From: an uncultured delta proteobacterium
Lineage (GTDB): Bacteria; Myxococcota; Myxococcia; Myxococcales; Myxococcaceae
Direction of reading: 5' to 3'
DNA: 64,000 bases
NCBI GenBank assembly: GCA_963771175.1
Contig: CAVYSY010000033.1
Coordinates: 480,001-544,000 of the forward strand
Part shown: in pieces, positions 9,383 to 58,388 of the stretch
Layout of the letters: every line of letters begins with the position of its first letter
Position numbering within the stretch: position 1 is the stretch's first letter
Translations under genes and position numbers: made by a program
Notes under the pieces: model-generated
Seen by the model: the letters and a program-made list of their open reading frames with translations, nothing else
What the model was told of the DNA's origin: nothing
Database searches by the model: none

Positions 9383-9392
9383 GCGCTCCCCG

Positions 9393-10475: not shown

Positions 10476-10689
10476 GTCCCCCCTGTATGCCACAGCCCCC
10501 CCGGTCCGCGCAGCCGCGAGGTGAGCTCGCCTGCCTGGGATGTACGCGGATGCAGGGTCGCCGTCACACACCGAACACCTGCGGCGAGCATGGGGGGAGG
10601 CCCTCGCCCCACCTGGGCCCGGCGCTTCCCGGGCTTATACCCGAGGCCCACCTTCTCGGGGCGAAGCCTGCCGGCAGGAGAGCCAGGTC

Positions 10690-12694: not shown

Positions 12695-12712
12695 GCGGGG
12701 GGCCTCGCCCCG

Positions 12713-13579: not shown

Positions 13580-13622
13580 GCCCACATCCTGGCCGACGCG
13601 GGCGGCCCCGCTCAATGCCGCG

Positions 13623-14264
<642 letters not shown>

Positions 14265-14454
14265 GCGAGCGCCAAATTACCATCAAATGAGAACCGTGTG
14301 CCTGTCCCCGGCGAGCCGCGGTGCGTCAACTCGGGCCCGCCTGGCACCTCCGCGACCAGGCTGCGCGTTCCAGCGCCAGGCGAACCAGCCGGGCACCACG
14401 TACGGGTAGAAGTGAGGTGTAGATCGTTTTCCAAGGGCGTTCGTTGAAGCCCCC

Positions 14455-15633: not shown

Positions 15634-15754
15634 GGGCGGGCATGGGGGCTGGCTCGGCCGCCCCCCTCTCAGGCGAAATGACGCATGGCGTCGGATGCGG
15701 GGGGTGTGCCAAGCTGCGCGCCCCCCCGCTTCGCACAACCCACGAGGAAGCGTC

Positions 15755-16750: not shown

Positions 16751-16751
16751 C

Positions 16752-17690: not shown

Positions 17691-17708
17691 GAACCGCGGC
17701 TCCCTCGC

Positions 17709-18380: not shown

Positions 18381-18702
18381 GCACGCTCTCCGGTTTGCAA
18401 AGTGCGCACGCCCAACATCGGTCGCCAGACATTAAAGTCCTGCCCCCTAGGTGCTGGAGGGGTCCATGGCCCCTCCCACCTACCGGATGAGGCTCGCGCC
18501 CGGCCCGCCCACTCCTGGGCAGGCGAGTAGCAGAGGGCTACCCGCCAGGGCCACACGCCCGTGGCCTCCGGGCCGCACCTCCGCGTCCGCCCGGACGCAC
18601 TCTAGGTGAAGCCGCTGCACCCCTGGGGTGGCCTGGGGATTGCTGCTATGAGGGGGCCTCTGCCGCGCCCTCCCTCGCGCGGCGCCTCTACCCGAGGCCC
18701 TC

Positions 18703-27000: not shown

Positions 27001-29760
27001 GGGCTCACCCCGGACAAGGACTCGTACAAGCCGGGCGAGACGGCACGCCTCATCGTCCAGAGCCCCTTCCAGGAGGGCCGCGCGCTGGTGGTGGTGGAGG
27101 AGCCGGGAGGCAACACCTACACCTGGCACGACGTGTCCGGCGGCAAGGCGGTGCACGAGCTGACCCTCCGTCCCCAGCACGTCCCCAACGTGCCGGTGCA
27201 CGTGGTGCTGATGCGCGGCCGACTCGGCGAGGGAGACAAGGACGACTCCCGCTACCGGCCGCAGACGCTCGGGGCCTCGGTGGACGTGAAGGTGGAGCCG
27301 GTGCGCAACCAGGTGGCGGTGGAAATCAAGCACCCGGAGACGGCGCGCCCTGGGGCCACGGTTCCGGTGGAGCTGACGCTCAAGGACGACCAGGGCAAGC
27401 CCCTGGCCGGCGAGGTGACGCTGTGGCTGGTGGACGAGGCCGTGCTGTCGCTCGCGCCGGAGGGGACGCTCAACCCGCTCGACGAGCTCATCCGGAGCAA
27501 CGCGCGCGGCACCACGCTGCGAGACACGCGCAACAACCTCGTGGGCAAGCTCTTCGAGCAGGAGGAGGAGCCCGGCGGTGACGGAGCCGAGGAGGAGGAG
27601 TCCGAGGGCGGCAGCAAGCGCGTGGTGCGCAAGAACTTCAAGACGGTGCCGTACTACCAGGCCACGCTGCAGGTGCCGGCATCGGGCAAGCTGACGGTGC
27701 AGGTGCCGCTGTCGGACGACCTCACCAACTTCCGCGTGCGAGCGGTAGCCATCTCCGGGCTGCAGCGCTTCGGCTACAAGCAGACGACGCTGCGCGTGCG
27801 GCTGCCGGTGCTGGCGCAGCCACAACTGCCGCGCTTCGTGCGCCAGGGAGACCGCTTCTGGGGCGGCGCGCTGGGCCGCGTGGTGGAAGGCAGTGGCGGC
27901 CCCGGCTCGGTGAAGGTCCAGATTTCCGGCCCGGCGGAGGCGCAGCCGCTGAGTCCCTCGGTGGAGCTGCAGGCCAACCGGGCCATGAGCTTCGTCACCC
28001 CCATCACCGTGAAGAGCGCGGACGTGTCCGAGCCCCAGTCTCTCAAGGTGCGCGTGGACATCGAGCGCAAGGCGGACAAGGCCGGAGACGCCTTCGAGGT
28101 GCAGCTCCCCGTGCTGCCGGACCGCACGGTGGAACACTTCGCGTACTTCGACACGTTGAAGGCCGGGAGCACCCCGCTGAAGCCGCTGCCCGAGCCGGCG
28201 CGCCCGGGCACCGCGTCCCAGGACGTGCTCATCACCTCCATCCCCGGTGTCCTCGAGCTGTACGCGGGCCTGGACTACCTGGCCGACTACCCGCACGGCT
28301 GCCTCGAGCAGAAGCTGTCGCAGCTCTACCCGGACGTGTCCCTGGGCGCGCTGCTCACCCAGCTCAAGCTGAACACGGTCTTCAGCAAGCAGCTCGCCTC
28401 GCACGTCCAGCGGCTCCAGGAGGAGATGGCCCAGTACCAGGACGCGCAGGGGCTGATGGCCTTCTGGCCGGGCGGGCCGGGCGACGTGCAGGTGACGGCG
28501 CAGACGGTGGAGTTCCTCGACGCGGCCCGGCGCGCGGGCCTGAAGGTGGACGAGAAGCTGCTGACGCGCGCGGTGGAAGGTCTCAAGCGCGTGCTGCGCA
28601 GCGACTACCCAGGCCTCGTGCAGGAGTGGCGCTACAGCCAGCAGACGGCGGCGCTGCGAGCCCTCGCCCGAGTGGGCGCGCTGGATGAGCACTACCTCAT
28701 CGACCTCTTCCAGCTCCGCGAGCGCCTGGACATCCAGAGCCTCGCGGACCTCGCCAGCACCATGTCCACCCAGCCTTCGCGCTACAGCTCCAACCTGGAG
28801 GTGCTGCGCAAGGAGTTGTGGGACAGCGTCATCATCAAGCTGAACAAGGGCAAGCCCGTCTTCGAGGGCCTCAAGTGGCGCCGCGCCGCGTGGGGCTACT
28901 ACGGCTTCCTCAGCACGCAGCCCTCCAGCGTGGCGGCCGTCTTCGAGGCGCTGGTGCGGATCGACCCGACCAACGAGCGGCTCGACCAGGTCCGCGACGC
29001 GCTCCTCTCCTACGCGAGCGCGGAGCTGGGCTTCGGCAGCACCTACGAGAACCGCCGCGCCCTGGCCGCCCTGGCCGTGTACCTGGAGAAGGCCAAACCG
29101 GCGGTGCCGGACACCACCGTGTCGCTCTCCTCGGGGAAGAACCTCCGCGTCAACGCGGACACGAAGACGGCCTCCACCGAGGTGGCCGGCGACGCGCCCC
29201 TCTCCGCCACCGTGAAGGGTGGGCCGGTGGGCGTACGCGTGGAGGCCCGCTACGTGCCGGCCACGCCGGGAGACAAGGTGGAGCCGCTCAAGCAGGGCTT
29301 CATCGTCTCGCGCAACGCCACCTGGCTGCACGCGGACGGCTCGGAGCAGACGTACTTCGACGACAAGGCTGGCGAGGTGAAGGCGCTGGCGGTGGGCGAC
29401 ATCCTGGAGCTGCACGCGCGGCTCGTCACCGAGGAGGACCGCAACCACGTGGCGCTGGTGGTGCCCTTCGCCGCGGGCCTGGAGCCCATGAACCCCGAGC
29501 TGGCGAATGCCTCCTCGGACGCGAAGCCGTCGCAGGCGGACTCGCTGACGCCGACCTACGTGCAGCGGCTGGACCACGAGGTCCGCTACTACTTCCTGCG
29601 ACTGCCGCGCGGCACGCACACCTTCCACTTCCGGGTGCGCGCCGCCACCGAGGGCTCCTTCGTCCACCCGGCGCCCTACGCCGAGATGATGTACCGGCAG
29701 TCGGTGCGCGGCCGCGGCGAGGGCCTGCGCATCGTGGTGAAGGGAGAGCATGAGAAGTAG
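24006..29760 (+). CDS. Bacterial alpha-2-macroglobulin, about 1917 aa (one apparent +1 frameshift near 25044)
   Basis: Signal peptide; FTERPIYRPGETVY (MG2); YKPGETA; VRKNF; SDDLTNFRVRAVA; thioester motif YPHGCLEQ at about 28300; AEMMY. Confidence 0.93.
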
Positions 29761-32118
29761 AAGCACACGCTGGCGGAGGGCGGCGGCGGTCGCCCTCGTG
29801 CTGGTGGCGGCGGGAGCGTGGTTCGTCTCCAGCCTTCAGGACGGGCTGCTCGCATATGAGCCCTCGCGCCTCGTGCTGGACCGGCGGGGCGCGTACCTGG
29901 GCGAGGTGCCCGGAACGGGCGAGGAGCTCGGCTACTGGCCGGTGCCCTACGTGCTGCCCGAGCGCATCGTCCAGGCCACGCTCACCACCGAGGACCGGCA
30001 CTTCTACGAGCACCCGGGCGTGTACCTGCCATCGGTGGGGCGCGCGCTGGTGCAGAACGTGCGCAACCTGCGCGTCATCTCCGGAGCGTCCACGCTGGCC
30101 ATGCAGGTAGCGCGGATGCAGACGCCCGGGGAGCGCAACCTGGGGCGCAAGGCGCGCGAGGCGGTGGAGGCCCTGCTGCTGGTGCGCAAGCACGGGCACG
30201 AGAAGGTGCTGCGTCAGTACCTGACCATCGCCCCGTACGGAAACCGGGTGCACGGAGTGGTGCGCGCCGCGCGCCTCTACTTCGACAAACCGGTGGAGGA
30301 CCTGTCGTGGGCGCAGGCGGCCTTCCTCGCGGGCCTGCCGCAGCTGCCCGGGCGGATGAACCCGTACACGGAGGAGGGCCTGCGCCGCGCCCTCAAGCGC
30401 AGCCACCGCATCCTCCGCGCGCTACACGAGCAAGGGCGTCCTCTCGCGCGAGGAGCTGGAGCAGGCCCGGCAGGCGGACCTCGGCCTCGTGCCCCGACCC
30501 CAGCGCATGCCCGAGGCGCTGCACGCGGTGCTGGAGTGGAGCGAGCTGTCCCGCGCGCGTGCCCAGCCCATCTCCGACGGCCACGCTGGACCTGGAGATT
30601 CAATCGAAGGTGGCGCACATCCTCCAGACGAACCTCAACCGGCTGGATGGCACGGGGGCGGGCAACACCGCCGCGCTGGTGGTGGACACGGAGACGGGAG
30701 ACATCCTCGCGTACGTGGGCTCGCGGGACTTCTTCAGCGAGGAGCACCGAGGAGCCATCGACTTCGTGAAGCAGCGGCGCTCGCCGGGCTCCACGCTCAA
30801 GCCCTTCATCTACGGGCTGGCGCTGGAGAAAGGCTCCGTCACCGCCGCCACCGAGCTGGCGGATACGCCGATGGACCTGCGGACGGAGAGCGGGCGGAGC
30901 TACCTGCCGGAGAACGTCAACCACAACTTCCTCGGGCCCATGCTGCTGCGCGAGGCGCTGAGCAACTCGCGCAACATCCCCGCCCTGCGCGTGCTGGAGG
31001 AGGTGGGAGTGGAGTCAACGCTGCGCTTCCTGGAGAAGGCGGGCGTGGGCGGCATCTCGTACGAGCCGGACCGGTACGGGCTCGGGCTGGCGATCGGCAA
31101 CCTGCACGTCACGCTGGAGGAATTGACGAGGCTTTACCTCGTGCTCTCCCATGAGGGCGAGACGCGCCCGCTGCGGCGCTTCGTCGACGAGCCCGTGGCC
31201 CCCTCACGCCGGCTGATGACGCGCGAGGCGGCACAACTGGTGCGCCATATCCTCGCGGACCCGCTGGCCCGGAGGCCGACGTTCGCCGCGGGCAGCGCGT
31301 TGGACTACCCGTACGCGGTGGCGGTGAAGACAGGCACCAGCCAGGGCTACCGCGACGCGTGGGCGGTGGCCTTCAGCGACCGGCTGCTCGTGGCCGTGTG
31401 GGTGGGCAACCACGACTGGCGCCGGATGAACGGCCTGGGCGGGCTCATGGGCGCGGCCGGCGCGGTGCATGAAATCCTGGACGCGGTGATGCCCGAGTGG
31501 CGCCCGTACCGGCCGGTGCTCGACACCTTCCCGCCGCCCGGGGGCGCGCTGGCGGTAGACGTGTGCACGCTGTCGGGCCGGCTGGCCGGCTCGGAGTGCC
31601 CGCACCGCAAGAGCGAGTGGTTCGTCCCGGGCACGGCCCCGACGGAGCCCTGCCCCTTCCACGCGCGCGTGAAGCTGGACCGGCGCAACGGCCTGCGCGC
31701 GGGCCCCACCTGCCCGGAGCGCGAGGTGGTGACGCGGGTGATGCTCGCGCTGCCCGAGGAGTACGCGCAGTGGGCGCGGCGGCAGCACCTGGACATCGCG
31801 CCGCTGCGGGAGAGCCCGCTCTGCCCGACCCACCCGGAGGAGTTGGAGCCGAAGGTGGCCATCCGCGAGCCAAGGGGCACGGTGCGACTGCTGTACGATC
31901 CGGACACGCCAGCCTCGGCCTCGACACTCCGGCTGGCGGCGGACGTGACACCGAGCACGGAGCCCATCGTGTGGATCGTCGACGGCGTGCCGGTGGCCAC
32001 GGTGAGCTGGCCGCACGAGTTCCGCTGGAGCGTCAGGCCCGGCCAGCACGTCATCACCGCGGCCATGGTGCACCGGCCCCAGGTCAGCCAGCCGGTGACG
32101 GTGGTAGTGGAAGATTAA
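29750..32118 (+). CDS. pbpC: Penicillin-binding protein 1C, about 788 aa (two apparent +1 frameshifts near 30434 and 30577)
   Basis: Transglycosylase motifs EDRHFYEHPGV and SGASTLAMQ; transpeptidase motifs STLK, SRN and KTGT; lies downstream of alpha-2-macroglobulin. Confidence 0.92.
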
Positions 32119-32128
32119 TACTACCCAG

Positions 32129-32876
32129 TCACTTGTCCCGGCTCCCCAGTGGGTACGGTTTGTTCGCCCACTTTGCACGCATCCGTGCCGCCCTTTTTCG
32201 CAGCTCGGCGAGATCGAGCGGGTTGGTCGCACGCCCCCAGTGCGCCACTACATGGCAATTCGGGCAGAGCAAAAGAAAGTCCTCCTTTTTGGGAGTCTTC
32301 ATGCCCTGCCCGACGGGCCGCTTGTGATGCACATGAATCAGCGTCTCGTACTCGGGGCCGTAGGCGTCGAAGCTCAGGTCGCATGCCTCGCAGGCATAGG
32401 GCTTCGAACGGCCTTGCAGTACAATTTTCCGGTTCCGGCTGCTCCGTTCAATCGCGTGGTGCGTGACGAGCTTCTTTCGGCCTTCCTCTTCGAGCGCTTC
32501 GTCAGTCGTGAGGACCATTTCATCTGGGGCGTCGGCGGGCGGGAACAGCGTCAGCACTCGGGCCGGACACTTCTTGCAGCGAGTGATCTTCCTCGAACGG
32601 CACGCCGTACCGGCTCACGAGGTGATCGATCAGCGCATTGGGGCTTTGGCTGCAGATCTTTTTGTACGCGCGCTGCGTCGCGCCGCCCGGACCATAGCGC
32701 TTATCGCTCGTTGCAATCCCACATTTCGCGCTGTGCAGCTTGACGTATCTCTCGCTCGTCTCCTGAAAGGTGTTGATGAAGAAGCCACCCCCGTTCTTCG
32801 CAACCCAGTCGAAGAAGGCTGTCGGCGGACTCGCGCTGTCAAACGTGCTGATCAACGCCTTCGGTTTCACAGGCAT
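32129..32876 (-). CDS. HNH endonuclease with an N-terminal Cys/His domain, about 248 aa (one apparent +1 frameshift near 32590)
   Basis: C-terminal EEGRKK..H..ER..CEAC..IHVHH..LCPNCH..H; N-terminal LHSAKC..KKICS..RCKKC once the frames are joined; visibly lower GC. Confidence 0.8.
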
Positions 32877-32960
32877 GCTCAACCTCAATGAGTAAGGAGC
32901 TAAACGGTACGCCGGGGTTATTTTTCACCTTTGCGAGATCGCTGGGCACCCAAATCTTCC

Positions 32961-33431
32961 ATGACCTTCAACGAACTTTCGGAGTTGCTGGAGAGGACCC
33001 CCGCGAAGAGCTTTGGCCAGGGGGTGAGCGACATGGAGCTCAACACCGCCAGTGCTGAACTGGGGGTGGACCTGACCGGTGGTTATCGGCTCTTCTTGAA
33101 GCGCTTTGGGTGGGGAGGCGTTGGGTCCATCGAGCTCTTTGGGCTCGGTGTGGATGTTCCGCCATACTTGAGCCTTACCGCGATGGCCAGGAGTGAGCGG
33201 GAGGAAGCGAGTCCCGCGCTCCCCGCGCATCTCCTTCCTTTGATGAACGACGGGGGAGGCAATCTCTACTGCCTTGATTCCCGGGTATCGGGAGAGCCCC
33301 CTGTGGTGTTCTGGGACCACACAGCCGGAGAGCAGCAGGAGCCCGCACGGGTGGCAGCTGACTTCACGACATGGCTGGCCGAACGGGTCGAGCGAGAGCT
33401 GGCTGGCGAGGCCGATGCTCAGGAATCGTAG
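32961..33431 (+). CDS. SMI1/KNR4 (SUKH) family protein
   Basis: ELGVDLTGGYRLFLKRFG, LMNDGGGNLYCLD, VVFWDH and VAADFTTWL motifs. Confidence 0.88.
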   Translation: MTFNELSELLERTPAKSFGQGVSDMELNTASAELGVDLTGGYRLFLKRFGWGGVGSIELFGLGVDVPPYLSLTAMARSEREEASPALPAHLLPLMNDGGGNLYCLDSRVSGEPPVVFWDHTAGEQQEPARVAADFTTWLAERVERELAGEADAQES

Positions 33432-33538
33432 CAGTTCACCCCATCTCGCTCAGCCCGGGATGCGCTCCCCATAGCAGGGGTGGAGAACGGGGCGTGCCCC
33501 GGTCCATGTCAGGGTGCCCCTCTAGAGTGCTCGGCGTC

Positions 33539-35947
33539 ATGAGACCCGAGAGAGAGCTGCACGACCTGTCTGGCGGGCAGAACGAGCCACTTCCGAAGCT
33601 GCCTGGGCGTGGCCAGTACACGGAGGGTGCCCGCCAGGAGAGGGTCGAGTTCCTCCAGCAGCACACGGGTATGCCTTTGCAGGCCTTGCAGCCGCTGTCG
33701 CTGCGGCCCGAGTCGCTGCTCCACAACGTGGAGAACCTGCTCGGGGCGGTCGAAGTACCCGTGGGAGTGGCCGGGCCCCTGCTGTTCCAGGGCCAGCATG
33801 CCCAGGGCACGCTCTTCCTCCCCGTGGCCACCACCGAGGGGGCCCTGGTCGCCTCCATCTGCCGTGGAGCGACCGCGCTCTCGCGCTCGGGCGGAGTGGT
33901 CACCCGGGTCCTCGCACAGCGGATGGTGCGAGCCCCCTTCTTCGAGTTCGACGGACTGGAGGAGGCCTGGCGCTTCTGCCGACTGCTGGAGGACTGCCTG
34001 CCCGCCCTCCGCGCACAGGTGCGGCGCGTGTCCGGCCACGCTCACCTGCTGGGCGTGGAGACGCAGGTGCTCGGCCGCTGCGTCTACACCCACTTCGTCT
34101 ATGAGACGGCGGACGCGGCCGGGCAGAACATGACGACGAGCTGCACCTGGTTCGCCTGCCAATGGCTGCTCGAGCGCCTGGAGCAGACCGGTCCGCGTCC
34201 GCGAATGTTCGTCGTGGACGGCAATGCCAGCGGCGACAAGAAAGTCGGCTTCCAGTCGTTCCTCGCCGGGCGGGGCACGCGCGTGGTGGCCGAGGTCCTG
34301 CTGACGCGCCAGAGCATCGAGCAGGTGCTGAAGACGACGCCCCAGGCACTCCTCGACGCCTACCAACTCTCGCTGGCCGCGGCCGTGCAGAGCGGGATGA
34401 TGGGCCACAACGTCAACGTGTCCAACGTGGTGGCTGGCGCCTTCGTCGCCACCGGCCAGGACGTCGCCTGCGTGCACGAGTCCAGCGTGGCTCAGCTGAT
34501 GCTGCGCCCCGAGCCGGAGGGCCTCTATGCCTCGATGCTGCTGCCCAGCCTGGTGGTGGGCACGGTGGGCGGTGGCACCCACCTGCCCCGGCAGCGAGCC
34601 CTGCTGGAGATGATGGGGTGTGCGGGCGAGGGGCAGACCCCGCGACTGGCGGAGATCATCGCTGGCTTCGCCCTGGCATTGGATCTCTCCACGCTCAGCG
34701 CGGTGATCAGCGGGCAGTTCGCCGCCGCGCACGAGCGGCTGGGGCGTAACCGCCCCGTGCGCTTCTTCTCCCGCGAGGATCTGACGGCGGACTTGCTGAA
34801 GCCGGCCCTGGAGCGCGCGGTACCGGGCGCCGAGTTGCTGGCGCTCGAGCCGCTGGGAGACCTGTCCCCAGGCGCCGGACTGCTCACCGAGCTCACCTCG
34901 CGCCGGCTCGGCCGCTCCAAGCAGATTGGCCACCAGCCCATGCGACTGCGGTACCGCACGGTCGGGGGCGAGCACGGCAGCCTCGAGCTCATGGTCAAGC
35001 TCAAGCCGCTGGACGAGGAGGTACTGCTGGCGGCTGGCACCGTGGCCGCGCTCGGAGGTGAGCGGCTGGCGCGGGCCTGGAGCCACTTCGGACGCCGCGT
35101 GGGTTTCGTCGGTACCCATTTGCGCGAGCTGGCCCTCGCGGAGCTGCGGGACGAGCGTCTGCGGCGGCACGCGCCGACGGTGTACCTCACCCACCGCGAC
35201 GACGCGCGCGAGGCCTATGTGCTGGTCATGGAGCTGCTGCGGGACGTGGAGCTGCTCGACAGCGCCGATGACCCGAGCGGCTGGGGCCCGGCGCAGCTGG
35301 AGGCGGCCCTGCGGGGCATCGCCCAGGTCCATGCCATCTGGTACGGGCGTGAGGACGAGCTGCTCGCACAGCCGTGGCTCGGCTACTGCTGGACAGCGCG
35401 GGGCATGGTCGAAGCGCGGGAGCTGTGGGAGGCGCTTCTGCGCCTGGCCGCGGACGAGTTGCCCGAGTGGTTCCCCCCCGAGGAGCTCGCCCTGCACGAG
35501 CGGCTGCTGGACACACTGCCCGAGTGGTGGGGGCAACTCGAGGCCCATCCCCGCACGCTCGTGCACAACGACTTCAACCCCCGCAACATCGCCCTGCGTG
35601 CCACTGGGGAGGGGCCGCGCCTGTGTGCCTATGACTGGGAGCTGGCCACCGCCCGCGCGCCCCAGCACGACCTGGCCGAGCTGCTCTCTTTCGTCCTCAC
35701 ACCCCAGGCCACGCACGCGCAGGTGGGGGCTCTGGTGGAGCTCCACCGACAGGCGCTCCAGGAGGCCACCGGCAGGCCCTTGGAGGCGCGGTCGTGGCGA
35801 GCCGGCTACGCGCTGTGCCTGCAGGACTTGCTGCTCCACCGCATGGGCCTGTACCTGCAGAGTCACGTCCACCGCGCCCAGCCCTTCACCGAGCGGGTGC
35901 TGCGTACCCTGCGCCACCTCATCCGCCTCGAGCGAGGCGAGAGCTGA
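33539..35947 (+). CDS. Class I HMG-CoA reductase-like domain fused to an APH/choline-kinase-like phosphotransferase, 802 aa
   Basis: ENLLG..VPVGVAGPL, ATTEGALVAS, DAAGQNM, GNASGDKK, TGQDVA, VGTVGGGT, AHERLGR; then TLVHNDFNPRNI and YDWE in the same frame. Confidence 0.9.
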   Translation: MRPERELHDLSGGQNEPLPKLPGRGQYTEGARQERVEFLQQHTGMPLQALQPLSLRPESLLHNVENLLGAVEVPVGVAGPLLFQGQHAQGTLFLPVATTEGALVASICRGATALSRSGGVVTRVLAQRMVRAPFFEFDGLEEAWRFCRLLEDCLPALRAQVRRVSGHAHLLGVETQVLGRCVYTHFVYETADAAGQNMTTSCTWFACQWLLERLEQTGPRPRMFVVDGNASGDKKVGFQSFLAGRGTRVVAEVLLTRQSIEQVLKTTPQALLDAYQLSLAAAVQSGMMGHNVNVSNVVAGAFVATGQDVACVHESSVAQLMLRPEPEGLYASMLLPSLVVGTVGGGTHLPRQRALLEMMGCAGEGQTPRLAEIIAGFALALDLSTLSAVISGQFAAAHERLGRNRPVRFFSREDLTADLLKPALERAVPGAELLALEPLGDLSPGAGLLTELTSRRLGRSKQIGHQPMRLRYRTVGGEHGSLELMVKLKPLDEEVLLAAGTVAALGGERLARAWSHFGRRVGFVGTHLRELALAELRDERLRRHAPTVYLTHRDDAREAYVLVMELLRDVELLDSADDPSGWGPAQLEAALRGIAQVHAIWYGREDELLAQPWLGYCWTARGMVEARELWEALLRLAADELPEWFPPEELALHERLLDTLPEWWGQLEAHPRTLVHNDFNPRNIALRATGEGPRLCAYDWELATARAPQHDLAELLSFVLTPQATHAQVGALVELHRQALQEATGRPLEARSWRAGYALCLQDLLLHRMGLYLQSHVHRAQPFTERVLRTLRHLIRLERGES

Positions 35948-35948
35948 C

Positions 35949-36872
35949 ATGGCACCGCTCGCCCTCTGTCTGGAGGTGCTGCCGCGGCTGCAGATCGCCT
36001 TCGCCGCCTTCCTCGCACTGCTGGCCTTCGCCCCGCAGAGCCGCCGGCTGTCCGCCGCCACCCGTCGCGGGCTGTGGATCAAACTGGTCGTCTTCTACCT
36101 CATCACCCACCTCTTCCTGCTGCTGCTGACGCTGGGCGGGGTGTGGCTCCACGCCGGCCTGCTCCTGGTGGGGATGGCGGCCTGCCGCGAGCTGGTGGGG
36201 GTGCTCCTGCCCGAGCCTGGGCAGGCCCCCTACCGCGCCATGGCCTGGGCCGGGTCGCTCGCCGCGCTGCTGCTCGCCCCCTCCGAGACGGCCGAGGGGC
36301 CCCTGCTGCTCGCGCTCCTGCTCGCCACGCTCGCCTTGCCCGTGCTCGGGCGCCGGCCCGCGGGCTGCCATGTGGCCGTGGCCTCCACGCTGCTGGTCGT
36401 GATGCTCGCCGGAGCTCTGCCCCTGCGGCTGCTGTGGCTGCGCCAGGAGCAGGGCCTCGCCGCGGCCTTCCTCTTCCTGCTCATCGTCCTCAATGACGGG
36501 TTCGCCGAGGCCTGCGGGCGGTTGTTCGGGCGCCGCCCCTTCTTCCAATCCATCAGCCCCCAGAAGACGCTCGAGGGGGCATTGGGAGGCACCGCCGCGG
36601 CTCTTGCCGGGGCACTGCTCTTCCACCCCCTGCTGCCAATTCCCGCCTGGCAGCGGCTGCTGCTGGGGCTCGTCGCTTCCGTGGCCGGCCACCTGGGAGA
36701 CCTGGTCTTCTCGGCCCTCAAGCGCAGCGTGGGGCGTAAGGACTTCGACTCGCTGCTGCCGTCCCATGGTGGGGTGCTGGACCGATTCGACAGCCTGTGG
36801 GTGGCCGCTCCCGCCTTCCACCATGCCTACGGCGCACTCATCTCGCTCACCCAGGAAGGAAGGACTCCATGA
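35949..36872 (+). CDS. Phosphatidate cytidylyltransferase family (CTP_transf_1) membrane protein
   Basis: NDGFA, ISPQKTLEG, GDLVFSALKR..GRKD..LLPSHGGVLDRFDS. Confidence 0.9.
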   Translation: MAPLALCLEVLPRLQIAFAAFLALLAFAPQSRRLSAATRRGLWIKLVVFYLITHLFLLLLTLGGVWLHAGLLLVGMAACRELVGVLLPEPGQAPYRAMAWAGSLAALLLAPSETAEGPLLLALLLATLALPVLGRRPAGCHVAVASTLLVVMLAGALPLRLLWLRQEQGLAAAFLFLLIVLNDGFAEACGRLFGRRPFFQSISPQKTLEGALGGTAAALAGALLFHPLLPIPAWQRLLLGLVASVAGHLGDLVFSALKRSVGRKDFDSLLPSHGGVLDRFDSLWVAAPAFHHAYGALISLTQEGRTP

Positions 36873-39568
36873 GCCATACCCCGTTCTGCCTCCTGTCCGA
36901 GGCTCGCGCACCCGCGCAGGTGGGAGGCAAGGCTCACTCCCTATGCCGCATGCTCGAGCTGGGACTGCCTGTTCCCGAGGGCTTCGTTGTCACCGATCTG
37001 GCCTTCCAGGCCTTCCTCGAGCAGGAGGACCTCGGTGCGCGACTGGCCAGACTGCGGGAGGGGCTCGTCCCCGGAGGGCTGGAGGCCATCCATCACGCCT
37101 CGCGGCAGATACAGGAACTGGTGCGCCAGACGCCCCTCCCAGAGCCCCTGCGCGCCGAGCTGGCCCGCTGGCGCGAGCGGGAGCTGGCCGCTCAGGAGCT
37201 CATCGTCCGCAGCTCCGCCGTGGGCGAAGACTCGAACGCCGCATCCTTCGCCGGACAGCTCGACTCCATCATCGGCGTGCGCACCCAGCAGGAGCTCGAA
37301 CGCGCGCTGGTGGACTGCTGGGCCTCCTACTGGTCAGCCCGCTCGCTGGCCTACCAGCTCGCGCGGGGGGTGGCGCTCTCCGGTATGGGCGTCATCGTCC
37401 AGCGGCTGGTGCACCCGCGACTGGCCGGAGTGCTCTTCACCCAGGGCCCCCAGCTCGAACAGGGGAAGATGCTGGCCGAGTACTGCCACGGTCACGGAGA
37501 GGCGCTCGTGTCCGGCCGCGTCGACCCCGGCCGCTTCACCCTCTCTCGCGCGGACGGCTCCTGGCATCGGCTCTCGTGGCCCGAGCACGTGGTGCCCCAG
37601 GACGAGGGGCTGCTGTTCTGCCCCGCCGCCCTGGAGTCCCTGCGCGCTGGAGGGCTGAGGCTCGAGGAGCGACTGGGCGGGCCGCAGGACGTGGAGTGGG
37701 TGGTGGATGAGCAGGGGCGGGTCCTCTTCGTCCAGTCGCGACCCATCACCGCCCCGCTGGAGGCTCGGCCGGCGGCCCCCGTGGCCCCCAGGCCTCCCGA
37801 GCCCCCGCGCCGCCCCATTCTCTGGTCCAACGCCAACATCAACGAGAACTTCCCGGACCCGGTCACGCCACTGCTGTATTCGGTGGCGGCGGAGGGCTAC
37901 TACCACTACTTCCGCAACCTGGCGCTGGTGCTGGGAGTGGAGCCCGAGCGGGTACGGCGCATGGAGCACCCGCTGCGCCAGCTCATCGGCGTGCATGGTG
38001 CACGGCTGTACTACAACCTCACGCACATCCACGACTTCCTGCGCAGCGCCCCCTTCGGCGAGCAGCTCAGCGGCTACTTCGATCGGTTCATCGGCGCCTC
38101 CTTCCAGGAAGGAGCCGAGGCGCGCGACGCGGGGGCGCGGTCCGGGGCGGGGCTGACCGAGGCGCTGGAGGTGGCCCGCATCTTCCTGTCCACCACGCAT
38201 GTGTACTCGGAGCTGGAGGAGCATATCCGCCAGTTCGAGCAGCGGGTCGAGGCCTTCAGCGCGCGCACCCACCCGCGCCTGCTGCGGGAGCGAGACTTGA
38301 TAGGGCTGCGCGAGGACCTTCGCGGCTTCCTGGAGATTCGCTTCCACCGCTGGGTGCAGGCCTCACTCGCGGACGCGGCGGCCATGGTGTGCTTCGGGGT
38401 GCTCGAGCAGGTGCTGGAAGCGGCCATGCCGGAGCCGGAGGAGCGCGCGCTGCATGGCACGCTGCTCAAGGGGCTGTCCGGACTGGTGAGCAGCGCCCCC
38501 ATCGAGCGGCTCTGGGAGCTGTCGCGGCAGGTGCGCGGCGACCGGCGGCTGCGCGAGCTCTTCGAGCGTGAGAAGGGCGCGGCGCTGCTGGAGCAGGTGA
38601 GGGCCGGCTCCTTTCCCGAGTTCCACAAGGCGCTCGAGCGCTACCTGGAGGACTGGGGCTTTCGTGGCTCGGGGGAGCTGATGCTCACCGTGCCGAACTT
38701 CCAGGAGGAGCCGGCGGGGCTGCTGGAGCTGCTGCGCGGCTACGTATCGCTGGAGGGGCCCTCGCCGGCCGAGCTGCTCCGGCAGCAGGGAGCGGAGCGG
38801 GAGGCGGCCACGGCCCGGGTGCTGGCGAGGCTGAGGCAGCGCGCGCTGGTGCCCGGGATGCCCCGGGCTCTCCAGGCGAGGCTCTTCTCGCGGCTGCTGG
38901 ATTGGACACAGCGGGCCATCGCCTTTCGCGAGCGGGCCCGGCTCAAGCAAGCCCTGCTCTACACCCGGCTGCGCGCCATTTCCCTGGCCATCGGCCAGCG
39001 ACTGGTGGAGCACGGCCGGGTGGAACGGAGGGAGGATGCGTTCTTCCTGACCTGGCAGGAGTTGGAGTCCCTGCTCGGGGGAAGTGCCATGTTCCCCCAG
39101 GGCGTGGCGGAACTGGTGGCCCTGCGCCGCCGCCAGCACGAGGTGCTCTCCAAGCAGCGCCCGCCGGATCGACTGGTGCTTCCCGAAGGGGCGTCCTGGG
39201 AGCCCGAGCCGTGGGCCTCCGCTGCCGAGCCCGCCATGGCGGGGCGCGGGGTGCTGTCCGGGGTGGGGACATGTGGCGGGCGGGTGAGTGCTCCCGCCGC
39301 GGTGATCCAGGAGCTGGCCGAGGCTCACCGATTGGCCCCCGGCGACATCCTCGTCACCCGGCAGACGGATCCGGGCTGGGCGCCGGTGTTCTTCCTCATC
39401 AAGGGACTGATCATGGAGCGAGGGGGCATGCTCTCACACGGTTCGATCATCGCTCGCGAGCTGGGCATACCGGCGGTGGTCGGAGCGAAGGATGCGACAC
39501 GGCGGATCCGCCACGGGCAGGTGGTGGATCTGGATGGGGACCTGGGCCATGTGCGCCTGGGGGAGTGA
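36869..39568 (+). CDS. PEP-synthase / rifampin-phosphotransferase-like dikinase, 899 aa
   Basis: VGGKA, VRSSAVGED..SFAGQ, GEALVSG, PQDVEW, VQSRPIT; C-terminal phospho-His domain TDPGW..GGMLSHGSIIARELGIPAVVG; ATGA overlap with the previous gene. Confidence 0.92.
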   Translation: MSHTPFCLLSEARAPAQVGGKAHSLCRMLELGLPVPEGFVVTDLAFQAFLEQEDLGARLARLREGLVPGGLEAIHHASRQIQELVRQTPLPEPLRAELARWRERELAAQELIVRSSAVGEDSNAASFAGQLDSIIGVRTQQELERALVDCWASYWSARSLAYQLARGVALSGMGVIVQRLVHPRLAGVLFTQGPQLEQGKMLAEYCHGHGEALVSGRVDPGRFTLSRADGSWHRLSWPEHVVPQDEGLLFCPAALESLRAGGLRLEERLGGPQDVEWVVDEQGRVLFVQSRPITAPLEARPAAPVAPRPPEPPRRPILWSNANINENFPDPVTPLLYSVAAEGYYHYFRNLALVLGVEPERVRRMEHPLRQLIGVHGARLYYNLTHIHDFLRSAPFGEQLSGYFDRFIGASFQEGAEARDAGARSGAGLTEALEVARIFLSTTHVYSELEEHIRQFEQRVEAFSARTHPRLLRERDLIGLREDLRGFLEIRFHRWVQASLADAAAMVCFGVLEQVLEAAMPEPEERALHGTLLKGLSGLVSSAPIERLWELSRQVRGDRRLRELFEREKGAALLEQVRAGSFPEFHKALERYLEDWGFRGSGELMLTVPNFQEEPAGLLELLRGYVSLEGPSPAELLRQQGAEREAATARVLARLRQRALVPGMPRALQARLFSRLLDWTQRAIAFRERARLKQALLYTRLRAISLAIGQRLVEHGRVERREDAFFLTWQELESLLGGSAMFPQGVAELVALRRRQHEVLSKQRPPDRLVLPEGASWEPEPWASAAEPAMAGRGVLSGVGTCGGRVSAPAAVIQELAEAHRLAPGDILVTRQTDPGWAPVFFLIKGLIMERGGMLSHGSIIARELGIPAVVGAKDATRRIRHGQVVDLDGDLGHVRLGE

Positions 39569-40658
39569 GGAGTTACGCGCCTACGTGCGCGAGCGCTTTC
39601 CGCTCGCGCTCTACGTGCCGCTGGCGGTGCTCCTCGCGGTGGCAGCGGAGGTGGGGAGCGGGACGGAGCCGCTGGCCATGCGAGTGCGAGACGTGCTGCT
39701 GGCCTGGGGGCTCGTCTTCCAGTTCCGGTTGTGGGACGACCTGGCGGACCGGGAGAGGGACAGGCAGGAGCGGCCAGAGCGGGTGTTGAGCCGGGCCCGC
39801 TCGCCGCGCCCCTTTCATCGGTTGCTGGCGGTGGCGGCGGGGAGCAACGTGGTGCTGCTCAGTCTGCCCCGGCCCTCGCTCCCGGTATTGGGCGGCTATC
39901 TGGCGCTCCAGGCCGCCTTTCTCGGAGGGTACGCGGTGCTTCGGCACCGGCCGCGGTGGCGGCTGGGCGCCGCACTCGCGGTCCTCGCCAAGTACCCGGC
40001 CTTTGTCGCCCTGCTCGCCATGCCCGTGCACGGTGCTCCCGCCTGGCGCTTGCCACTCGCCATGGCGGTGGTGTTCCTGTGCTTCGGCGTCCACGAGCTG
40101 CTGCACGACGAGCGGCTGCGCTCCTCTGCCCTGGCCCTGCCCGTGCTCGTCGGCCAGGCGCTGGTCCTGCAGGGGCTGCTGGGGGGGCTGGTGTGGGCCG
40201 TGCGCGAGCGGGGCGCGGGTTGGCTGGCGGTGCAGGCGGTGCCGTGCCTGGCCACCGCCACCCTGCTGGCCTGGCTCATCCACCGATGGAGTGGGGGCCG
40301 AGCACCCGGCCCATACGCCTACGCTCTCTTCGCCCTCTGCCTGCTGCAGCTGATATTGAGTTCCGCCTCAATCCCTACTCAGCCGGTGCGCCCCATCAAG
40401 GAAGCGGAGGGCCCCGCGGCGGCGGTGCAGCCTCCATCGACCGCGAAGTCCTGGCCGGTGATGAACGAGGCCTTGTCGCTGAAGAGGAAGACGACGAGCT
40501 CGGCCACCTCCTCGGGCAGCCCCACGCGGTTCATCGGGTGGAGCGAGGCGGCGAAGGCGCGCCCCTGTGGCTCATCGAGCCGCCAGCCATCGGTGGCCAT
40601 CTCCGACTCGACGACACCGGGGCTCACCGCGTTCACCCGGATGCCCTTCTGCGCATAG
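39549..40658 (+). CDS. UbiA-prenyltransferase-like membrane protein (true end uncertain, probably near 40380)
   Basis: YVRERFP, then Asp-rich FRLWDDLADRERDRQERPERVL; about 8 hydrophobic helices; the ORF tail runs antisense into the SDR gene. Confidence 0.65.
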   Translation: MCAWGSEELRAYVRERFPLALYVPLAVLLAVAAEVGSGTEPLAMRVRDVLLAWGLVFQFRLWDDLADRERDRQERPERVLSRARSPRPFHRLLAVAAGSNVVLLSLPRPSLPVLGGYLALQAAFLGGYAVLRHRPRWRLGAALAVLAKYPAFVALLAMPVHGAPAWRLPLAMAVVFLCFGVHELLHDERLRSSALALPVLVGQALVLQGLLGGLVWAVRERGAGWLAVQAVPCLATATLLAWLIHRWSGGRAPGPYAYALFALCLLQLILSSASIPTQPVRPIKEAEGPAAAVQPPSTAKSWPVMNEALSLKRKTTSSATSSGSPTRFIGWSEAAKARPCGSSSRQPSVAISDSTTPGLTAFTRMPFCA

Positions 40659-41173
40659 TCGATGGCGGCACCGCGCGAGAGCGCGACGACGCCGGCCTTG
40701 GAGGCACTGTAGCCAGAGAGCCCAGGCAGGGCGCGCGAGGCGCCCACCGAGGCACAGTTGACGATGGAGCCCCCTCCGTTCGCGAGCATGGCGTTGAGCT
40801 GATGCTTCATGCACCAGAAGGTGCCGCGGAGGTTGGTGTTCATCAGCAGGTCGAACTCGTCATTGGTCATCTCGGCGAGCGGCTTCATGATGCCGGCACC
40901 GGCATTGTTGAAGGCGCCGTCGAGACGGCCATAGGTGGAGACCGCGGTCCGGACGAGCGCCTCGATGTCCCGCTCGACTCGCATGTCGGCGTTGACCCAC
41001 GTCACCTCTCCACCACGCTCCCGGATGTGGGCGACGAGCTCACGGCCCTTGGCTTCGCGTCGCGCGCTCGCGACCACCTTGGCGCCCTCGGCGGCGAGCG
41101 CGATGGCCGTGGCTCGGCCGATGCCCGAGCTCGCGCCCGTCACGAGGATTACCTTGTCAGTCAACATGCCCAT
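40379..41173 (-). CDS. Short-chain dehydrogenase/reductase
   Basis: VTGASSGIG, FNNAG, YSASK, IRVNAVSPG, VDGG. Confidence 0.93.
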   Translation of the reverse strand: MGMLTDKVILVTGASSGIGRATAIALAAEGAKVVASARREAKGRELVAHIRERGGEVTWVNADMRVERDIEALVRTAVSTYGRLDGAFNNAGAGIMKPLAEMTNDEFDLLMNTNLRGTFWCMKHQLNAMLANGGGSIVNCASVGASRALPGLSGYSASKAGVVALSRGAAIDYAQKGIRVNAVSPGVVESEMATDGWRLDEPQGRAFAASLHPMNRVGLPEEVAELVVFLFSDKASFITGQDFAVDGGCTAAAGPSASLMGRTG

Positions 41174-41224
41174 CTCGCGTCCCCCAACACACAGTGTGAA
41201 CGGGCACCCGTCGCCGCTCAGGCC

Positions 41225-41239
41225 TGGCACCCGCGATGC
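41225..41239 (+). promoter_or_regulatory. Possible sigma-54 -24/-12 promoter for the thioesterase gene
   Basis: TGGCAC-CCGCG-ATGC (GG-N10-GC spacing) about 90 nt upstream of ATG 41326. Confidence 0.3.
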
Positions 41240-41325
41240 CCGGCTATTGTAACCGAGTAACTGACGCCCCACCTCGGGTGCGCCCCGACCCGGGGGATTG
41301 ACGGGACCCGCCCGTCCTCCGCAGC

Positions 41326-42117
41326 ATGACGTCACCCCGCATGCTCGTTCCTCCCGTCTACCGCCGCTGGGTGACCTGTCCTGAGCCGCGCCCGCAGGCG
41401 AGCCTCCGCCTGTTCTGCTTCCACTTCGCGGGAGGAGATGCCTCGCTCTTCCGGCTGTGGACGAAGCAGCTCCCCTCCTCCATCGAGGTGTGTCCCATCG
41501 AGCTGCCGGGCCGGGCCAGCCGCCGCGCCGAGCCCCCCATCACCGCCTTTCCCGAGCTGCTCGAGAAGGTGGCGAGCATGGTGCGCCCCTTCCTCAAGGA
41601 GCGCCCCTCCGTCTTCTTCGGGCACAGCTTCGGCGGCATCACCGCCTTCGAGCTGACGCGCTGGCTGCGCCGCCAGGGTGGCCCCCTACCGCTGCGCCTC
41701 TTCCTCTCGGCCTGCCCGGCCCTGCACGTGCGGCCCCGGCCCGCTCCTCCCATCAGCCACCTGTCGGACGCGGAGTTCCTGGAGCAGATCGCCTCCCGGT
41801 ATGGCGCGCCCCGGGACGTGCTCGCCAGTGATGACGTCCGGGACACGGTGCTGCCCGCGTTGCGCGCGGACCTGCTCGTCGCCGAGAGCTACCGCTACGC
41901 CGAGGAGCCACCGCTGGACGTGCCCATCTCGTCCTTCGGCGCCTGGGAGGACCCGGAGGTCAGCCCCGGGGAGGCGGAGGCGTGGAGCCAGCAGACCACC
42001 ACCGACTTCCGCCTGCGCATGTTCCCGGGCAACCACTTCTTCCTCGCGGCCGAGCGGGCCCGGCTGCACCAGGCCATCCTCGAGGATCTCCAGGGGCAGG
42101 TCGGCGTCAGCGCCTGA
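41326..42117 (+). CDS. Type II thioesterase
   Basis: RLFCFHFAGG, ELPGR, GHSFG, LPALRAD, FPGNHFF. Confidence 0.92.
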   Translation: MTSPRMLVPPVYRRWVTCPEPRPQASLRLFCFHFAGGDASLFRLWTKQLPSSIEVCPIELPGRASRRAEPPITAFPELLEKVASMVRPFLKERPSVFFGHSFGGITAFELTRWLRRQGGPLPLRLFLSACPALHVRPRPAPPISHLSDAEFLEQIASRYGAPRDVLASDDVRDTVLPALRADLLVAESYRYAEEPPLDVPISSFGAWEDPEVSPGEAEAWSQQTTTDFRLRMFPGNHFFLAAERARLHQAILEDLQGQVGVSA

Positions 42118-42226
42118 CGGGAGGCCCCGGCAATTTCCCCGGCGACCCGGGCGTTCCCGGTAGTCTTCCGCCCGCGCCGCCAGGCCTCCCCGCCCACCGG
42201 GCAGGCGGCCTCCGAGGACCCCGTAC

Positions 42227-58342: not shown

Positions 58343-58388
58343 GAAGCAGGCGGTCTGAGGCAGTTCGGACACAGCTGAGGCACACCTC

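Follow-up and report, generated by a model that had tools for sequence, protein, structure and literature searches.

A single gene in the window, the 64,000-nucleotide stretch of DNA analysed here, encodes an 802-residue protein in which an HMG-CoA-reductase-type domain is joined to a small-molecule kinase domain. Both domains keep their catalytic residues, the residues that bind the HMG carboxylate are lost, the gene heads a four-gene operon, and the partnership with the operon genes is conserved at other loci. On the basis of these sequence features, the fusion protein is probably a bifunctional acyl-thioester reductase and alcohol kinase that feeds an accessory, possibly ether-linked, phospholipid. 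Its substrate, the order of the steps and every product of the pathway proposed below are what we infer. The results point to a widespread, uncharacterised enzyme module that would turn activated acids into phosphorylated alcohols, as the opening part of a lipid pathway not yet studied.

The features of the fusion gene and its operon are as follows:
33539..35947, + strand: whole fusion gene P0001, 802 aa (translation, Pfam, homologue matches)
33632..34747, + strand: HMG-CoA-reductase-type (class I-like) thioester reductase domain, residues 32-403 (Pfam HMG-CoA_red)
34826..35944, + strand: APH/EcKL-fold small-molecule kinase domain, residues ~430-802 (Pfam, fold model)
35949..36872, + strand: CTP_transf_1 (CdsA-like) membrane cytidylyltransferase, 307 aa (ATG 1 nt past the fusion stop)
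36869..39568, + strand: PPDK_N + PEP-utilizers dikinase-type phosphotransferase (PEP-synthase/rifampicin-phosphotransferase-like), 900 aa (ATG overlaps the CdsA-like stop, ATGA)
39534..40658, + strand: divergent UbiA-like integral membrane transferase, motif RLWDDLADRERD (HMM match, homologues)

A reductase and a kinase in one reading frame

The translation of positions 33539-35947 (+) gave 802 residues with a single terminal stop, and the GC content at third positions stayed at 0.82-0.93 in this frame from ~33450 to 35850, unbroken across the domain junction. The one uninterrupted 802-aa frame seen in the preliminary description was thereby confirmed. The start at 33539 is also the start of an 88%-identical homologue. 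This homologue, likewise of 802 aa, is 91% identical over the kinase half searched and 88% identical in the full-length alignment. At least 621 database proteins and at least 582 genome loci match the fusion. Nearly all of the best 120 of the 621 matches to the kinase half are 750-1170 aa long and all 120 contain PF00368, the few shorter ones being contig-end pieces. In four independent public runs, the contigs over the gene run across the boundary between the domains and differ from it by substitutions, with no indels; one of 7209 bases, spanning 33400-36100, has 52 substitutions and 0 gaps. As the architecture is conserved in homologues and no indels occur in the four public assemblies, we rejected an assembly artefact, that is, a dropped stop or a frameshift joining two genes.

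The module is carried by oil-degrading Pseudomonadales, Myxococcota, actinomycetes and Spirochaetota, and is found in soil metagenomes. Isolates of Fluviicoccus keumensis, Thalassolituus pacificus and Zooshikella ganghwensis are among its culturable carriers. The full-length fusion was not found in the genomes of 40 relatives, which yielded only two reductase-only matches (39-40% identity), and the gene is therefore accessory among the relatives searched. No kinase paralogues were found in its own genome, and a look for RNA evidence listed no RNA data set for this DNA. A search of article full texts revealed no paper on the fusion or the gene set and no biochemically characterised member; the recurrent match, PMC12419801, mentions in its matching passages only an unrelated HMGR and GHMP-kinase neighbourhood.

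Residues 32-403 match positions 2 to 368 of the 368 in the Pfam profile HMG-CoA_red, PF00368 (E 3.6e-102; 342.6 bits, gathering score 27), and contain the motifs TTEG (residue 98), DAAGQN (192), GDKK (232), TGQD (305), GTVGGG (341) and AHERLG (397). Human HMGR residue numbers were mapped through a profile alignment to 7uli and 1dq8. The catalytic Glu559/Lys691/Asp767/His866 are kept as E100, K234, D308 and H398, so the earlier reading of four intact class I positions was correct. An alignment of 18 sequences shows no variation at the catalytic positions of either domain, and among the 120 fused proteins, the best of the 621 matches, those of the reductase are present in 113 (E), 114 (K), 117 (D) and 120 (H), the remainder being gaps. 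The pocket residues Ser565, Arg568, Arg590, Asp690, Lys691/692 and Asn755 are retained as well.

Meanwhile, three positions are changed: P0001 has D227 at the position of Ser684, L277 at that of Lys735 and N293 at that of His752. In the 120 fused proteins, the Ser684 position holds Glu in 96, Asp in 18, a gap in 6 and Ser in 0. The Lys735 position is variable (most often L 26, R 20, G 20, N 11 and H 9), with Lys outside the 8 commonest residues, and Asn occupies the His752 position in 113/120. According to the relevant passage of PMC9500038, Lys735 (human; Arabidopsis Lys441) forms a salt bridge with the HMG carboxylate, and Ser684 is the cis-loop residue that holds this carboxylate. The score of P0001 against the NCBIfam HMGR equivalog TIGR00533 is 277.3 bits, under the cut-off of 441.8. 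The invariant acidic residue that stands in for Ser684 would be at least as compatible with a cationic or polar substrate as with a plain fatty chain, and anion binding may persist in the 20/120 proteins that have Arg in place of Lys735. The DAAGQN that replaces DAMGMN is a real variant. In another genome of the same genus, an HMGR-like gene that is not fused also has DAAGQN and keeps Ser and His at the positions changed in the fusion, so the motif is not subfamily-specific and was rejected as a marker of new specificity.

The second half of the protein contains an EcKL Pfam match at residues 541-743 (26.2 bits against a cut-off of 22), and most homologues have a precomputed APH (PF01636) annotation. 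Its motifs are VKLKP (residue 486), HNDFNPRN (676) and YDWE (698), and all motifs named in the preliminary description were found in their places, including HNDFNPRN at nt 35564. The kinase residues K487, E530, H676, D678, N683 and D699 are kept; the ATP-binding K487, the HxDxxxxN loop (H676/D678/N683) and the metal-binding D699 are invariant or nearly so in two alignments. The AlphaFold model of the domain (pLDDT 95.3) has the bilobal kinase fold. At E<=0.001 it matched 277 chains in the PDB, and the 46 matches listed are without exception APH, choline-kinase or other small-molecule or putative kinases of the same fold. The nearest solved folds are the putative APH 3dxp, 25-hydroxysteroid kinase, PsiK and the choline, ethanolamine and homoserine kinases. 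No GHMP kinase domain was matched on P0001 in Pfam or NCBIfam. Thus, the EcKL match, the catalytic motifs and the predicted fold substantiate the proposed likeness to APH/choline kinases, and the presence of the HMG-CoA_red and EcKL domains in a single frame substantiates the fusion itself.

Partner genes and sister fusions

The four genes of the operon headed by the fusion are tightly coupled: the CdsA-like cytidylyltransferase gene begins after a gap of 1 nt, the dikinase gene overlaps it by ATGA, and the UbiA-like transferase gene overlaps the dikinase gene by 35 nt. The dikinase has the catalytic-His motif GGMLSH at residue 852. The UbiA-like assignment comes from an 80-residue HMM match (E 1.2e-8) and from homologues named by JGI only. 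These homologues have 276-282 aa and end near 40353, while the window ORF continues to 40658, which may reflect a lost stop or an assembly indel. No acyl-activating gene adjoins the window operon. The genes at 40379-43183 (an SDR, a thioesterase and a 318-aa ORF) were rejected as members of the system, as no relative of theirs lies near the fusion in 80 loci (E 1e-8). The sole exception is one SDR match ~8 kb from the fusion in locus L059.

The neighbourhoods were counted at the 50 HMGR-type fusion loci that have 5 kb or more of sequence to each side. The dikinase is present in 38, the UbiA-like gene in 39, both in 35 and neither in 8. Six of these last eight are from Streptomyces, where the fusion adjoins an MFS transporter and a small ORF. 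The gammaproteobacterial UbiA-like protein exceeds the cut-off of the prenyltransferase model NF004617 (285.6 bits against 239), and partner genes show weak matches to CarS and archaetidylserine synthase. The gammaproteobacterial cluster also encodes c5, a conserved protein of 380 aa, which was considered as a divergent DUF3419 and ruled out (hhalign probability 0.1).

The kinase domain was also searched against 1.84 billion representatives, giving 1132 matches at E<=1e-3. Of the best 150 relatives, 102 had at least 500 aa, and the first 58 of those were scanned with Pfam (E<=1e-15). The scan showed HMG-CoA_red in 19, the thioester reductase NAD_binding_4 in 34 (one of them also with AMP-binding and one also with PP-binding) and neither in 5. 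A motif count had indicated that most long kinase relatives lack the HMGR motifs; the Pfam scan explains them as NAD_binding_4 fusions. One kinase family is therefore joined to two unrelated thioester reductases and, as a primary alcohol is their common product, this points to that alcohol as the kinase substrate.

The same partners accompany the ACP-reductase-kinase fusions. In 21 metagenome loci of at least 8 kb, the dikinase occurs in 15 and the UbiA-like gene in 16. One such cluster has the order fatty acid desaturase, CarS-like, dikinase, UbiA-like, methyltransferase, PlsC-type acyltransferase, FAAL-like ligase and ACP-reductase-kinase. The best matches of this FAAL-like ligase are fatty acyl-AMP ligases, at scores under every curated NCBIfam cut-off. 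The window proteins are 42-51% (dikinase) and 32-41% (UbiA-like) identical to their ACP-type counterparts.

The proposed route and its alternatives

In the route that we propose, the HMGR-type domain would use two NAD(P)H to reduce a non-HMG acyl-CoA, most likely a fatty or fatty-like one to judge from the parallel NAD_binding_4 fusions and the partner genes, through the aldehyde to a primary alcohol, which the APH-fold kinase would convert with ATP into an alkyl (or alkenyl) phosphate. The other three enzymes of the operon would then take over this phosphate. The dikinase may add a second phosphate, the UbiA-like membrane enzyme may take the resulting alkyl diphosphate as an alkyl donor, and the CdsA-like enzyme may activate the lipid phosphate formed with CTP. 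The end product would be an accessory phospholipid, possibly ether-linked. Counting against this route are the acidic residue at the Ser684 position, the proteins with Arg at the Lys735 position, the eight loci with neither partner, the lack of an adjoining acyl-activating gene, the low scores of the FAAL-like ligase and the short match behind the UbiA-like assignment. UbiA-family chemistry, moreover, normally requires an allylic diphosphate, and a saturated fatty alcohol would not supply one.

A bolder version, which we put forward only tentatively and consider doubtful, is that the operon and its relatives make bacterial ether lipids in the archaeal style from fatty acids. A fatty or 2-alkenyl alcohol would be phosphorylated twice, by the fused kinase and by the dikinase, to an alkyl diphosphate; the UbiA-like enzyme would form the ether bond to glycerol phosphate, and CDP activation would follow.

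A different end use is conceivable but unlikely: a small polar (amino- or hydroxy-) acyl-CoA would be converted to an alcohol and its phosphate and then CDP-activated and attached to a lipid, so that, much as in the Kennedy pathway, a novel head group would result. The acidic residue at the Ser684 position in 114/120 fused proteins could pair with an amine, and the fold matches include choline and ethanolamine kinases. Of the 50 loci, 30 have CDP-alcohol phosphatidyltransferase genes and 8 have BtaA-like DUF3419 genes, and DUF3419 is fused to the fusion protein in two database members. On the other hand, the sister fusions use an ACP and a thioester reductase beside a FAAL-like ligase and a PlsC-type acyltransferase, and the UbiA-like enzyme would be left without a role. 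The known substrates of CTP_transf_1 and CarS-like enzymes are lipid phosphates and not soluble ones, and this preference also speaks against the head-group route.

It is still less probable that the kinase leaves the reductase's alcohol aside and phosphorylates a different hydroxyl, on a substrate bound to CoA or on a lipid; the two domains would then work in succession, but in another order. For the APH-type kinase domains of ACAD10/11, the substrate is said to be 4-hydroxyacyl-CoA. The only two sequence-level PDB matches of the kinase half, 3dxp (E 0.0035) and ACAD11 8v3v (E 0.0066), would fit such a role, as would an AidB-type acyl-CoA dehydrogenase two genes upstream of the fusion in Rhodococcus. 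Both matches are weak, however, and the occurrence of the same kinase on two unrelated alcohol-producing reductases points to the alcohol that they make.

The preliminary description had offered two readings, a non-homologous mevalonate kinase channelled to HMGR and a reductase-kinase acting on a different acyl-CoA. The first would make P0001 a true HMGR with a non-GHMP mevalonate kinase, yielding mevalonate 5-phosphate, which might feed an isoprenoid lipid through the UbiA-like and CarS/CdsA-like enzymes. It accords with the retained class I tetrad and most of the pocket, and with partners resembling archaeal isoprenoid-lipid enzymes. Nevertheless, we judge it very improbable and did not retain it, given the loss of Ser684 and Lys735 and the TIGR00533 score below the cut-off. 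A separate contig of the organism's genome bears a mevalonate operon that comprises a class-II-type HMGR, a mevalonate kinase of the GHMP family (C36:59633-60438) and the decarboxylase; Dxr was not found in this genome (81.7% completeness). The five gammaproteobacterial carriers tested are of the MEP type, with Dxr in 5/5 and mevalonate-diphosphate decarboxylase above the cut-off in 0/5. The fusion of the same kinase to ACP-thioester reductases also argues against mevalonate. The second reading, a different acyl-CoA, gains support from the lost HMG-carboxylate binders, the separate mevalonate operon and the MEP-type carriers, as well as from the same kinase on an unrelated thioester reductase with the same partner genes.

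Finally, a drug- or xenobiotic-modifying enzyme is the least credible option. APH-type kinases and rifampicin-phosphotransferase-type dikinases both include antibiotic inactivators, the dikinase scores 328 bits against the model for rifamycin phosphotransferase (cut-off 999), the fold matches include corramycin and aminoglycoside phosphotransferases, and the Streptomyces members adjoin an MFS transporter. All those scores are far under their cut-offs, however, and such a role would leave unexplained the reductase and the UbiA-like, CdsA/CarS-like, acyltransferase and lipid-exporter partners.

Comparison with known systems

P0001 shares with class I HMGR (EC 1.1.1.34; 6hr7, 7uli/8ecg, 1dq8) the fold family PF00368 (E 2.9e-72 to 6hr7), the catalytic Glu/Lys/Asp/His, GTVGGG and most of the pocket. 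It differs in Ser684 (Glu/Asp), Lys735 (variable), His752 (Asn) and DAMGMN (DAAGQN), falls under the equivalog cut-off, is fused to a kinase and has no linkage to mevalonate genes. The fusion proteins are named 'HMG-CoA reductase' or 'phosphotransferase' in databases, and through this naming genome-based reconstructions would assign a mevalonate step to bacteria that have only the MEP route.

The kinase resembles the APH/EcKL/choline-kinase types (3dxp, 25-hydroxysteroid kinase 9fsg/9ft5, LicA 4r7b) in its bilobal fold, ATP-binding Lys, HxDxxxxN and metal-binding Asp, but only distantly (TM 0.4-0.5, 11-18% identity). It forms a family of its own with 1132 representative clusters, mostly fused to thioester reductases among the long relatives scanned. 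A single protein for the conversion of acyl-CoA to alkyl phosphate would be a useful tool for fatty-alcohol derivatives.

Related systems are the uncharacterised ACP-thioester reductase-kinase fusions, whose kinase is 36-49% identical to that of the window and which share the dikinase, UbiA-like and CarS-like partners. Their reductase is of the SDR type and acts on a carrier-protein thioester, predicted to be loaded by the FAAL-like ligase, whereas the window enzyme should use a CoA thioester. The myxobacterial ElbD-type ether-lipid enzyme, a ligase-ACP-reductase-acyltransferase, resembles the proposed route in that an activated fatty acid is reduced to feed an ether lipid, but it is not known to have a kinase, a dikinase or a UbiA-like enzyme as a partner.

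If the ether-lipid reading is true, it bears on the origin of bacterial ether lipids in environmental samples and on the sharpness of the bacterial/archaeal lipid divide. The archaeal-style version, if true, would add a third, oxygen-independent bacterial ether-lipid route and a natural path from a carboxylic acid to an alkyl diphosphate. The partner genes of the fusion resemble the enzymes of archaeal polar-lipid assembly (the UbiA-family DGGGP synthase, CarS and archaetidylserine synthase). The differences are that the proposed donor would come from a reduced acyl thioester and not from isoprenoid synthesis, and that the window enzyme is of the CdsA type and not of the CarS type.

An intact fusion gene and its surroundings

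The translation of 33539-35947 on the plus strand gave 802 residues with a sole, terminal stop, and the third-position GC stayed at 0.82-0.93 over the entire gene, the junction near 34750 included. This agreed with the uninterrupted frame proposed in the preliminary description, and each motif named there was found in its place in the protein, P0001.

Layout of the fusion protein P0001
33539-35947 (+), HMG-CoA reductase-type domain followed by a kinase domain
Residues 32-403, HMG-CoA_red (Pfam, E 3.6e-102), with TTEG at 98, DAAGQN at 192, GDKK at 232, TGQD at 305 and AHERLG at 397
Residues 541-743, EcKL/APH-type kinase (Pfam); HNDFNPRN at 676 (nt 35564), YDWE at 698

A check for insertions and deletions mattered because the assembly has frame breaks elsewhere. 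Contigs from four public runs cover the gene and read across the domain junction, differing from the window by substitutions alone; a single 7209-base contig runs through the entire stretch, with 52 substitutions and no gap; the frameshift between the domains envisaged earlier was thus not seen in these contigs. The kinase half was also used for a search restricted to proteins of 441-1404 aa, which gave at least 621 matches. The best 120 of 621 listed were nearly all 750-1170 aa long and all contained PF00368, the few shorter ones being contig-end pieces. An 802-aa homolog among the matches listed shares 91% identity over the searched kinase half and 88% over the full-length alignment. When one genome was scanned for each species, at least 582 fusion loci were found. 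The fusion is genuine. Members of ~910 aa have an additional N-terminal domain of ~100 residues, which the window's protein does not have.

The full-length fusion was not found in a search of 40 relatives, of which 17 belong to the same genus, a further 7 to the family and a further 16 to the order; this search gave only two reductase-only matches (39-40% identity). Contigs of four other runs part from the window at 33426-33447, so a variable junction lies immediately before the operon. Over evolutionary time, the operon seems to be accessory and mobile.

Features upstream of the fusion
15695-16750 (+), fatty-acid desaturase whose N-terminal domain is that of sphingolipid delta-4 desaturases (Lipid_DES), ~17 kb before the operon
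18703-24009 (+), 1768-aa ORF, third-position GC 0.94, no Pfam family at E<=0.001
25087-29760, gene for a 1557-aa bacterial alpha-2-macroglobulin, just upstream of the split PBP1C
29750-30769 and 30307-32118 (+), PBP1C-type penicillin-binding protein divided between overlapping frames, with the transglycosylase on one and transpeptidase plus BiPBP_C on the other; the gene is frameshifted or the assembly has an indel
32129-33431, low-GC islet (0.54-0.62 vs about 0.71) carrying genes for an HNH endonuclease (-) and a SUKH/SMI1-KNR4 immunity-type protein (+)

The substrate pocket of the reductase domain

The catalytic residues E100, K234, D308 and H398 are invariant in an alignment of 18 diverse members, so the class I positions are kept, as had been claimed; among the 120 fused members listed they are present in 113, 114, 117 and 120, respectively, the remainder being gaps. 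The NCBIfam equivalog for NADPH HMGR scored P0001 at 277.3 bits, below its cut-off of 441.8. For the mapping of the pocket, the family profile was aligned to solved structures; the mapping is direct because the 7uli chain carries native numbering. The roles of the pocket residues were taken from PMC9500038. The equivalent of Ser684 is D227 in P0001 and, among the 120 fused members listed, Glu in 96, Asp in 18, a gap in 6 and Ser in 0. That of Lys735 is L277 and varies (L 26, R 20, G 20, N 11, H 9 and others), with Lys outside the eight commonest residues, and the His752 position is Asn in 113/120. Ser565, Arg568, Arg590, Asp690, Lys691/692 and Asn755 are retained in the fused family. The thioester chemistry is thus kept. 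At its other end, where that source places the hold on the HMG carboxylate, the pocket is remade and now has an acidic residue.

The variant cofactor motif noted earlier, DAAGQN instead of DAMGMN, is indeed present but not fusion-specific, as it occurs in 110/120 fused and 100/120 short unfused matches listed. As a marker of the pocket change it was ruled out, because an unfused HMGR-like gene in a genome of the same genus combines DAAGQN with Ser and His at these positions.

One kinase family with two reductase partners

Residues 405-802 were modelled with AlphaFold from a 27-sequence alignment (mean pLDDT 95.3), and Foldseek matched the model to 277 PDB chains at E<=0.001. Foremost among these were a putative APH (3dxp), 25-hydroxysteroid kinase, PsiK, YtaA and LicA choline kinase, along with corramycin phosphotransferase and N-acetylhexosamine, fructosamine-3-, ethanolamine and homoserine kinases, at TM-scores of 0.4-0.5 and identities of 11-18% to the top solved small-molecule kinases. 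The ATP-binding Lys K487, Glu E530, H676, D678, N683 and D699 are conserved in the kinase alignments. The model and alignments indicate an intact yet distant member of the small-molecule kinase fold, and the likeness to APH and choline kinases seen earlier is upheld by the Pfam match and LicA.

The kinase half alone was then searched against 1.84 billion representative proteins; 1132 matched at E<=1e-3, and 249 of these reached E<=1e-30. The best 150 of the 1132 comprised 86 of at least 750 aa, 16 of 500-749 aa and 48 shorter ones. The Pfam scan covered the first 58 of the 102 relatives of at least 500 aa: HMG-CoA_red was present in 19 and NAD_binding_4, an SDR-type thioester reductase, in 34 (one also with AMP-binding, one also with PP-binding, E<=1e-15); 5 had neither at E<=1e-15. 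One kinase family is thus fused to two unrelated enzymes that both reduce a thioester to an aldehyde or alcohol, the most telling result of this analysis. Its simplest reading is that the kinase would take the alcohol made by the reductase. Two database proteins of 1167-1170 aa, P0112 and P0119, have an N-terminal DUF3419 (BtaA-like) domain ahead of the reductase-kinase.

The preliminary description offered two readings. That of a reductase-kinase acting on another acyl-CoA is supported by the remade pocket and by the same kinase on an unrelated thioester reductase. The other, a non-homologous mevalonate kinase channelled to HMGR, is not supported. Another contig of the window's own genome (C36) carries a separate operon of HMGR, GHMP mevalonate kinase, a second GHMP kinase and diphosphomevalonate decarboxylase; Dxr was not found in this genome (81.7% completeness). 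Among five gammaproteobacterial isolates carrying the fusion, Dxr was over the cut-off in 5/5 and the decarboxylase in 0/5, with one weak match (22 bits). Mevalonate phosphorylation in this genome therefore does not need the fusion, and elsewhere the remaining pathway does not accompany it. The HMGR of the C36 operon contains the EEPSVVAA motif of the class-II type. This operon (57400-61950, -) is spread over several frames, which suggests assembly indel errors or decay.

Operon, gene neighbourhoods and a candidate lipid pathway

The fusion is the first of four tightly coupled genes.

Genes downstream of the fusion, in order
CTP_transf_1 (CdsA-like) gene, ATG 1 nt past the fusion's stop
PPDK_N + PEP-utilizers dikinase, ATG overlapping the preceding stop (ATGA)
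Divergent UbiA-like membrane protein (RLWDDLADRERD), overlapping the dikinase end by 35 nt

The dikinase has an intact His motif, GGMLSH; its best NCBIfam matches ('phosphoenolpyruvate synthase' models, rifamycin phosphotransferase, PigC/RedH) are all below cut-off. The UbiA-like assignment rests on the profile of c3, a conserved neighbour family (E 1.2e-8 over 80 residues), whose members score 285.6 bits with NF004617 'prenyltransferase' (cut-off 239), and on two homologs named 4-hydroxybenzoate polyprenyltransferase by JGI. At 40353-40658 this ORF runs ~100 codons past the end of its 83-85%-identical homologs and overlaps an opposite-strand SDR gene, likely through a lost stop or indel.

Neighbours were counted at the 50 of 80 kept genome loci with at least 5 kb on either side of the fusion.

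Neighbours of the fusion (loci of 50)
Dikinase, 38; UbiA-like, 39; both, 35
Neither, 8 (six Streptomyces, one Polyangium MAG, one unclassified)
AMP-binding ligase, 39
CarS- or CdsA-like, 31
CDP-alcohol phosphatidyltransferase, 30
MMPL transporter, 31
LolA-like, 21
DUF3419 (BtaA-like), 8

In Gammaproteobacteria the genes typically run LolA-like, unknown, MMPL, UbiA-like, fusion, dikinase, unknown, fatty-acid-CoA-ligase family (above the NF006754 cut-off), PssA-like and CarS-like. In Streptomyces loci without either partner the context is different: in L034, L059, L065 and L066 (~8400-12900) the fusion has an MFS_3-type transporter on one side and, on the other, a conserved ORF of 122-156 aa without family. 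In L068 and L073 (Rhodococcus, Nocardia; 5600-22300), an acyl-CoA ligase and an AidB-type acyl-CoA dehydrogenase flank the fusion and UbiA-like gene, together with KS-ACP-TE polyketide synthase and NRPS modules.

Starting from the observed domains, residues, operon and partnerships, we infer the following steps. The fusion protein would reduce an acyl-CoA to a primary alcohol and phosphorylate it, and the dikinase may supply the second phosphate; PPDK itself phosphorylates phosphate. The UbiA-like enzyme could then use the diphosphate as an alkyl donor, and the CdsA-like enzyme would activate the resulting lipid phosphate with CTP. It seems reasonably probable to us that the reductase-to-kinase step belongs to a lipid pathway and acts on an acyl thioester other than that of HMG; the complete ether-lipid scheme is doubtful. 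What chiefly counts against the proposal is that the acidic pocket residue is invariant, that UbiA enzymes usually need allylic donors, that the window lacks an acyl-activating gene and that the Streptomyces context differs. Literature searches found no study of the fusion or its gene set.

A further comparison is with the fusions of the same kinase family to NAD_binding_4 (ACP-reductase-kinases). A metagenome scan with these fusions gave 80 loci; among the 21 of that type of at least 8 kb, the dikinase was present in 15 and the UbiA-like gene in 16, and three of the five without both had no upstream flank. One cluster comprises a fatty-acid desaturase, CarS-like, dikinase, UbiA-like, methyltransferase, PlsC-type acyltransferase, a ligase (best matches fatty acyl-AMP ligases, below cut-offs) and ACP + thioester reductase (above the TIGR01746 cut-off) + kinase. 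The window's dikinase is 42-51% identical to those of the ACP-reductase type and 27-30% to gammaproteobacterial ones; its UbiA-like protein shares 32-41% with those of ACP-reductase-type clusters. From these shared partners and identities, the HMGR-type and ACP-reductase-type modules look interchangeable within one pathway.
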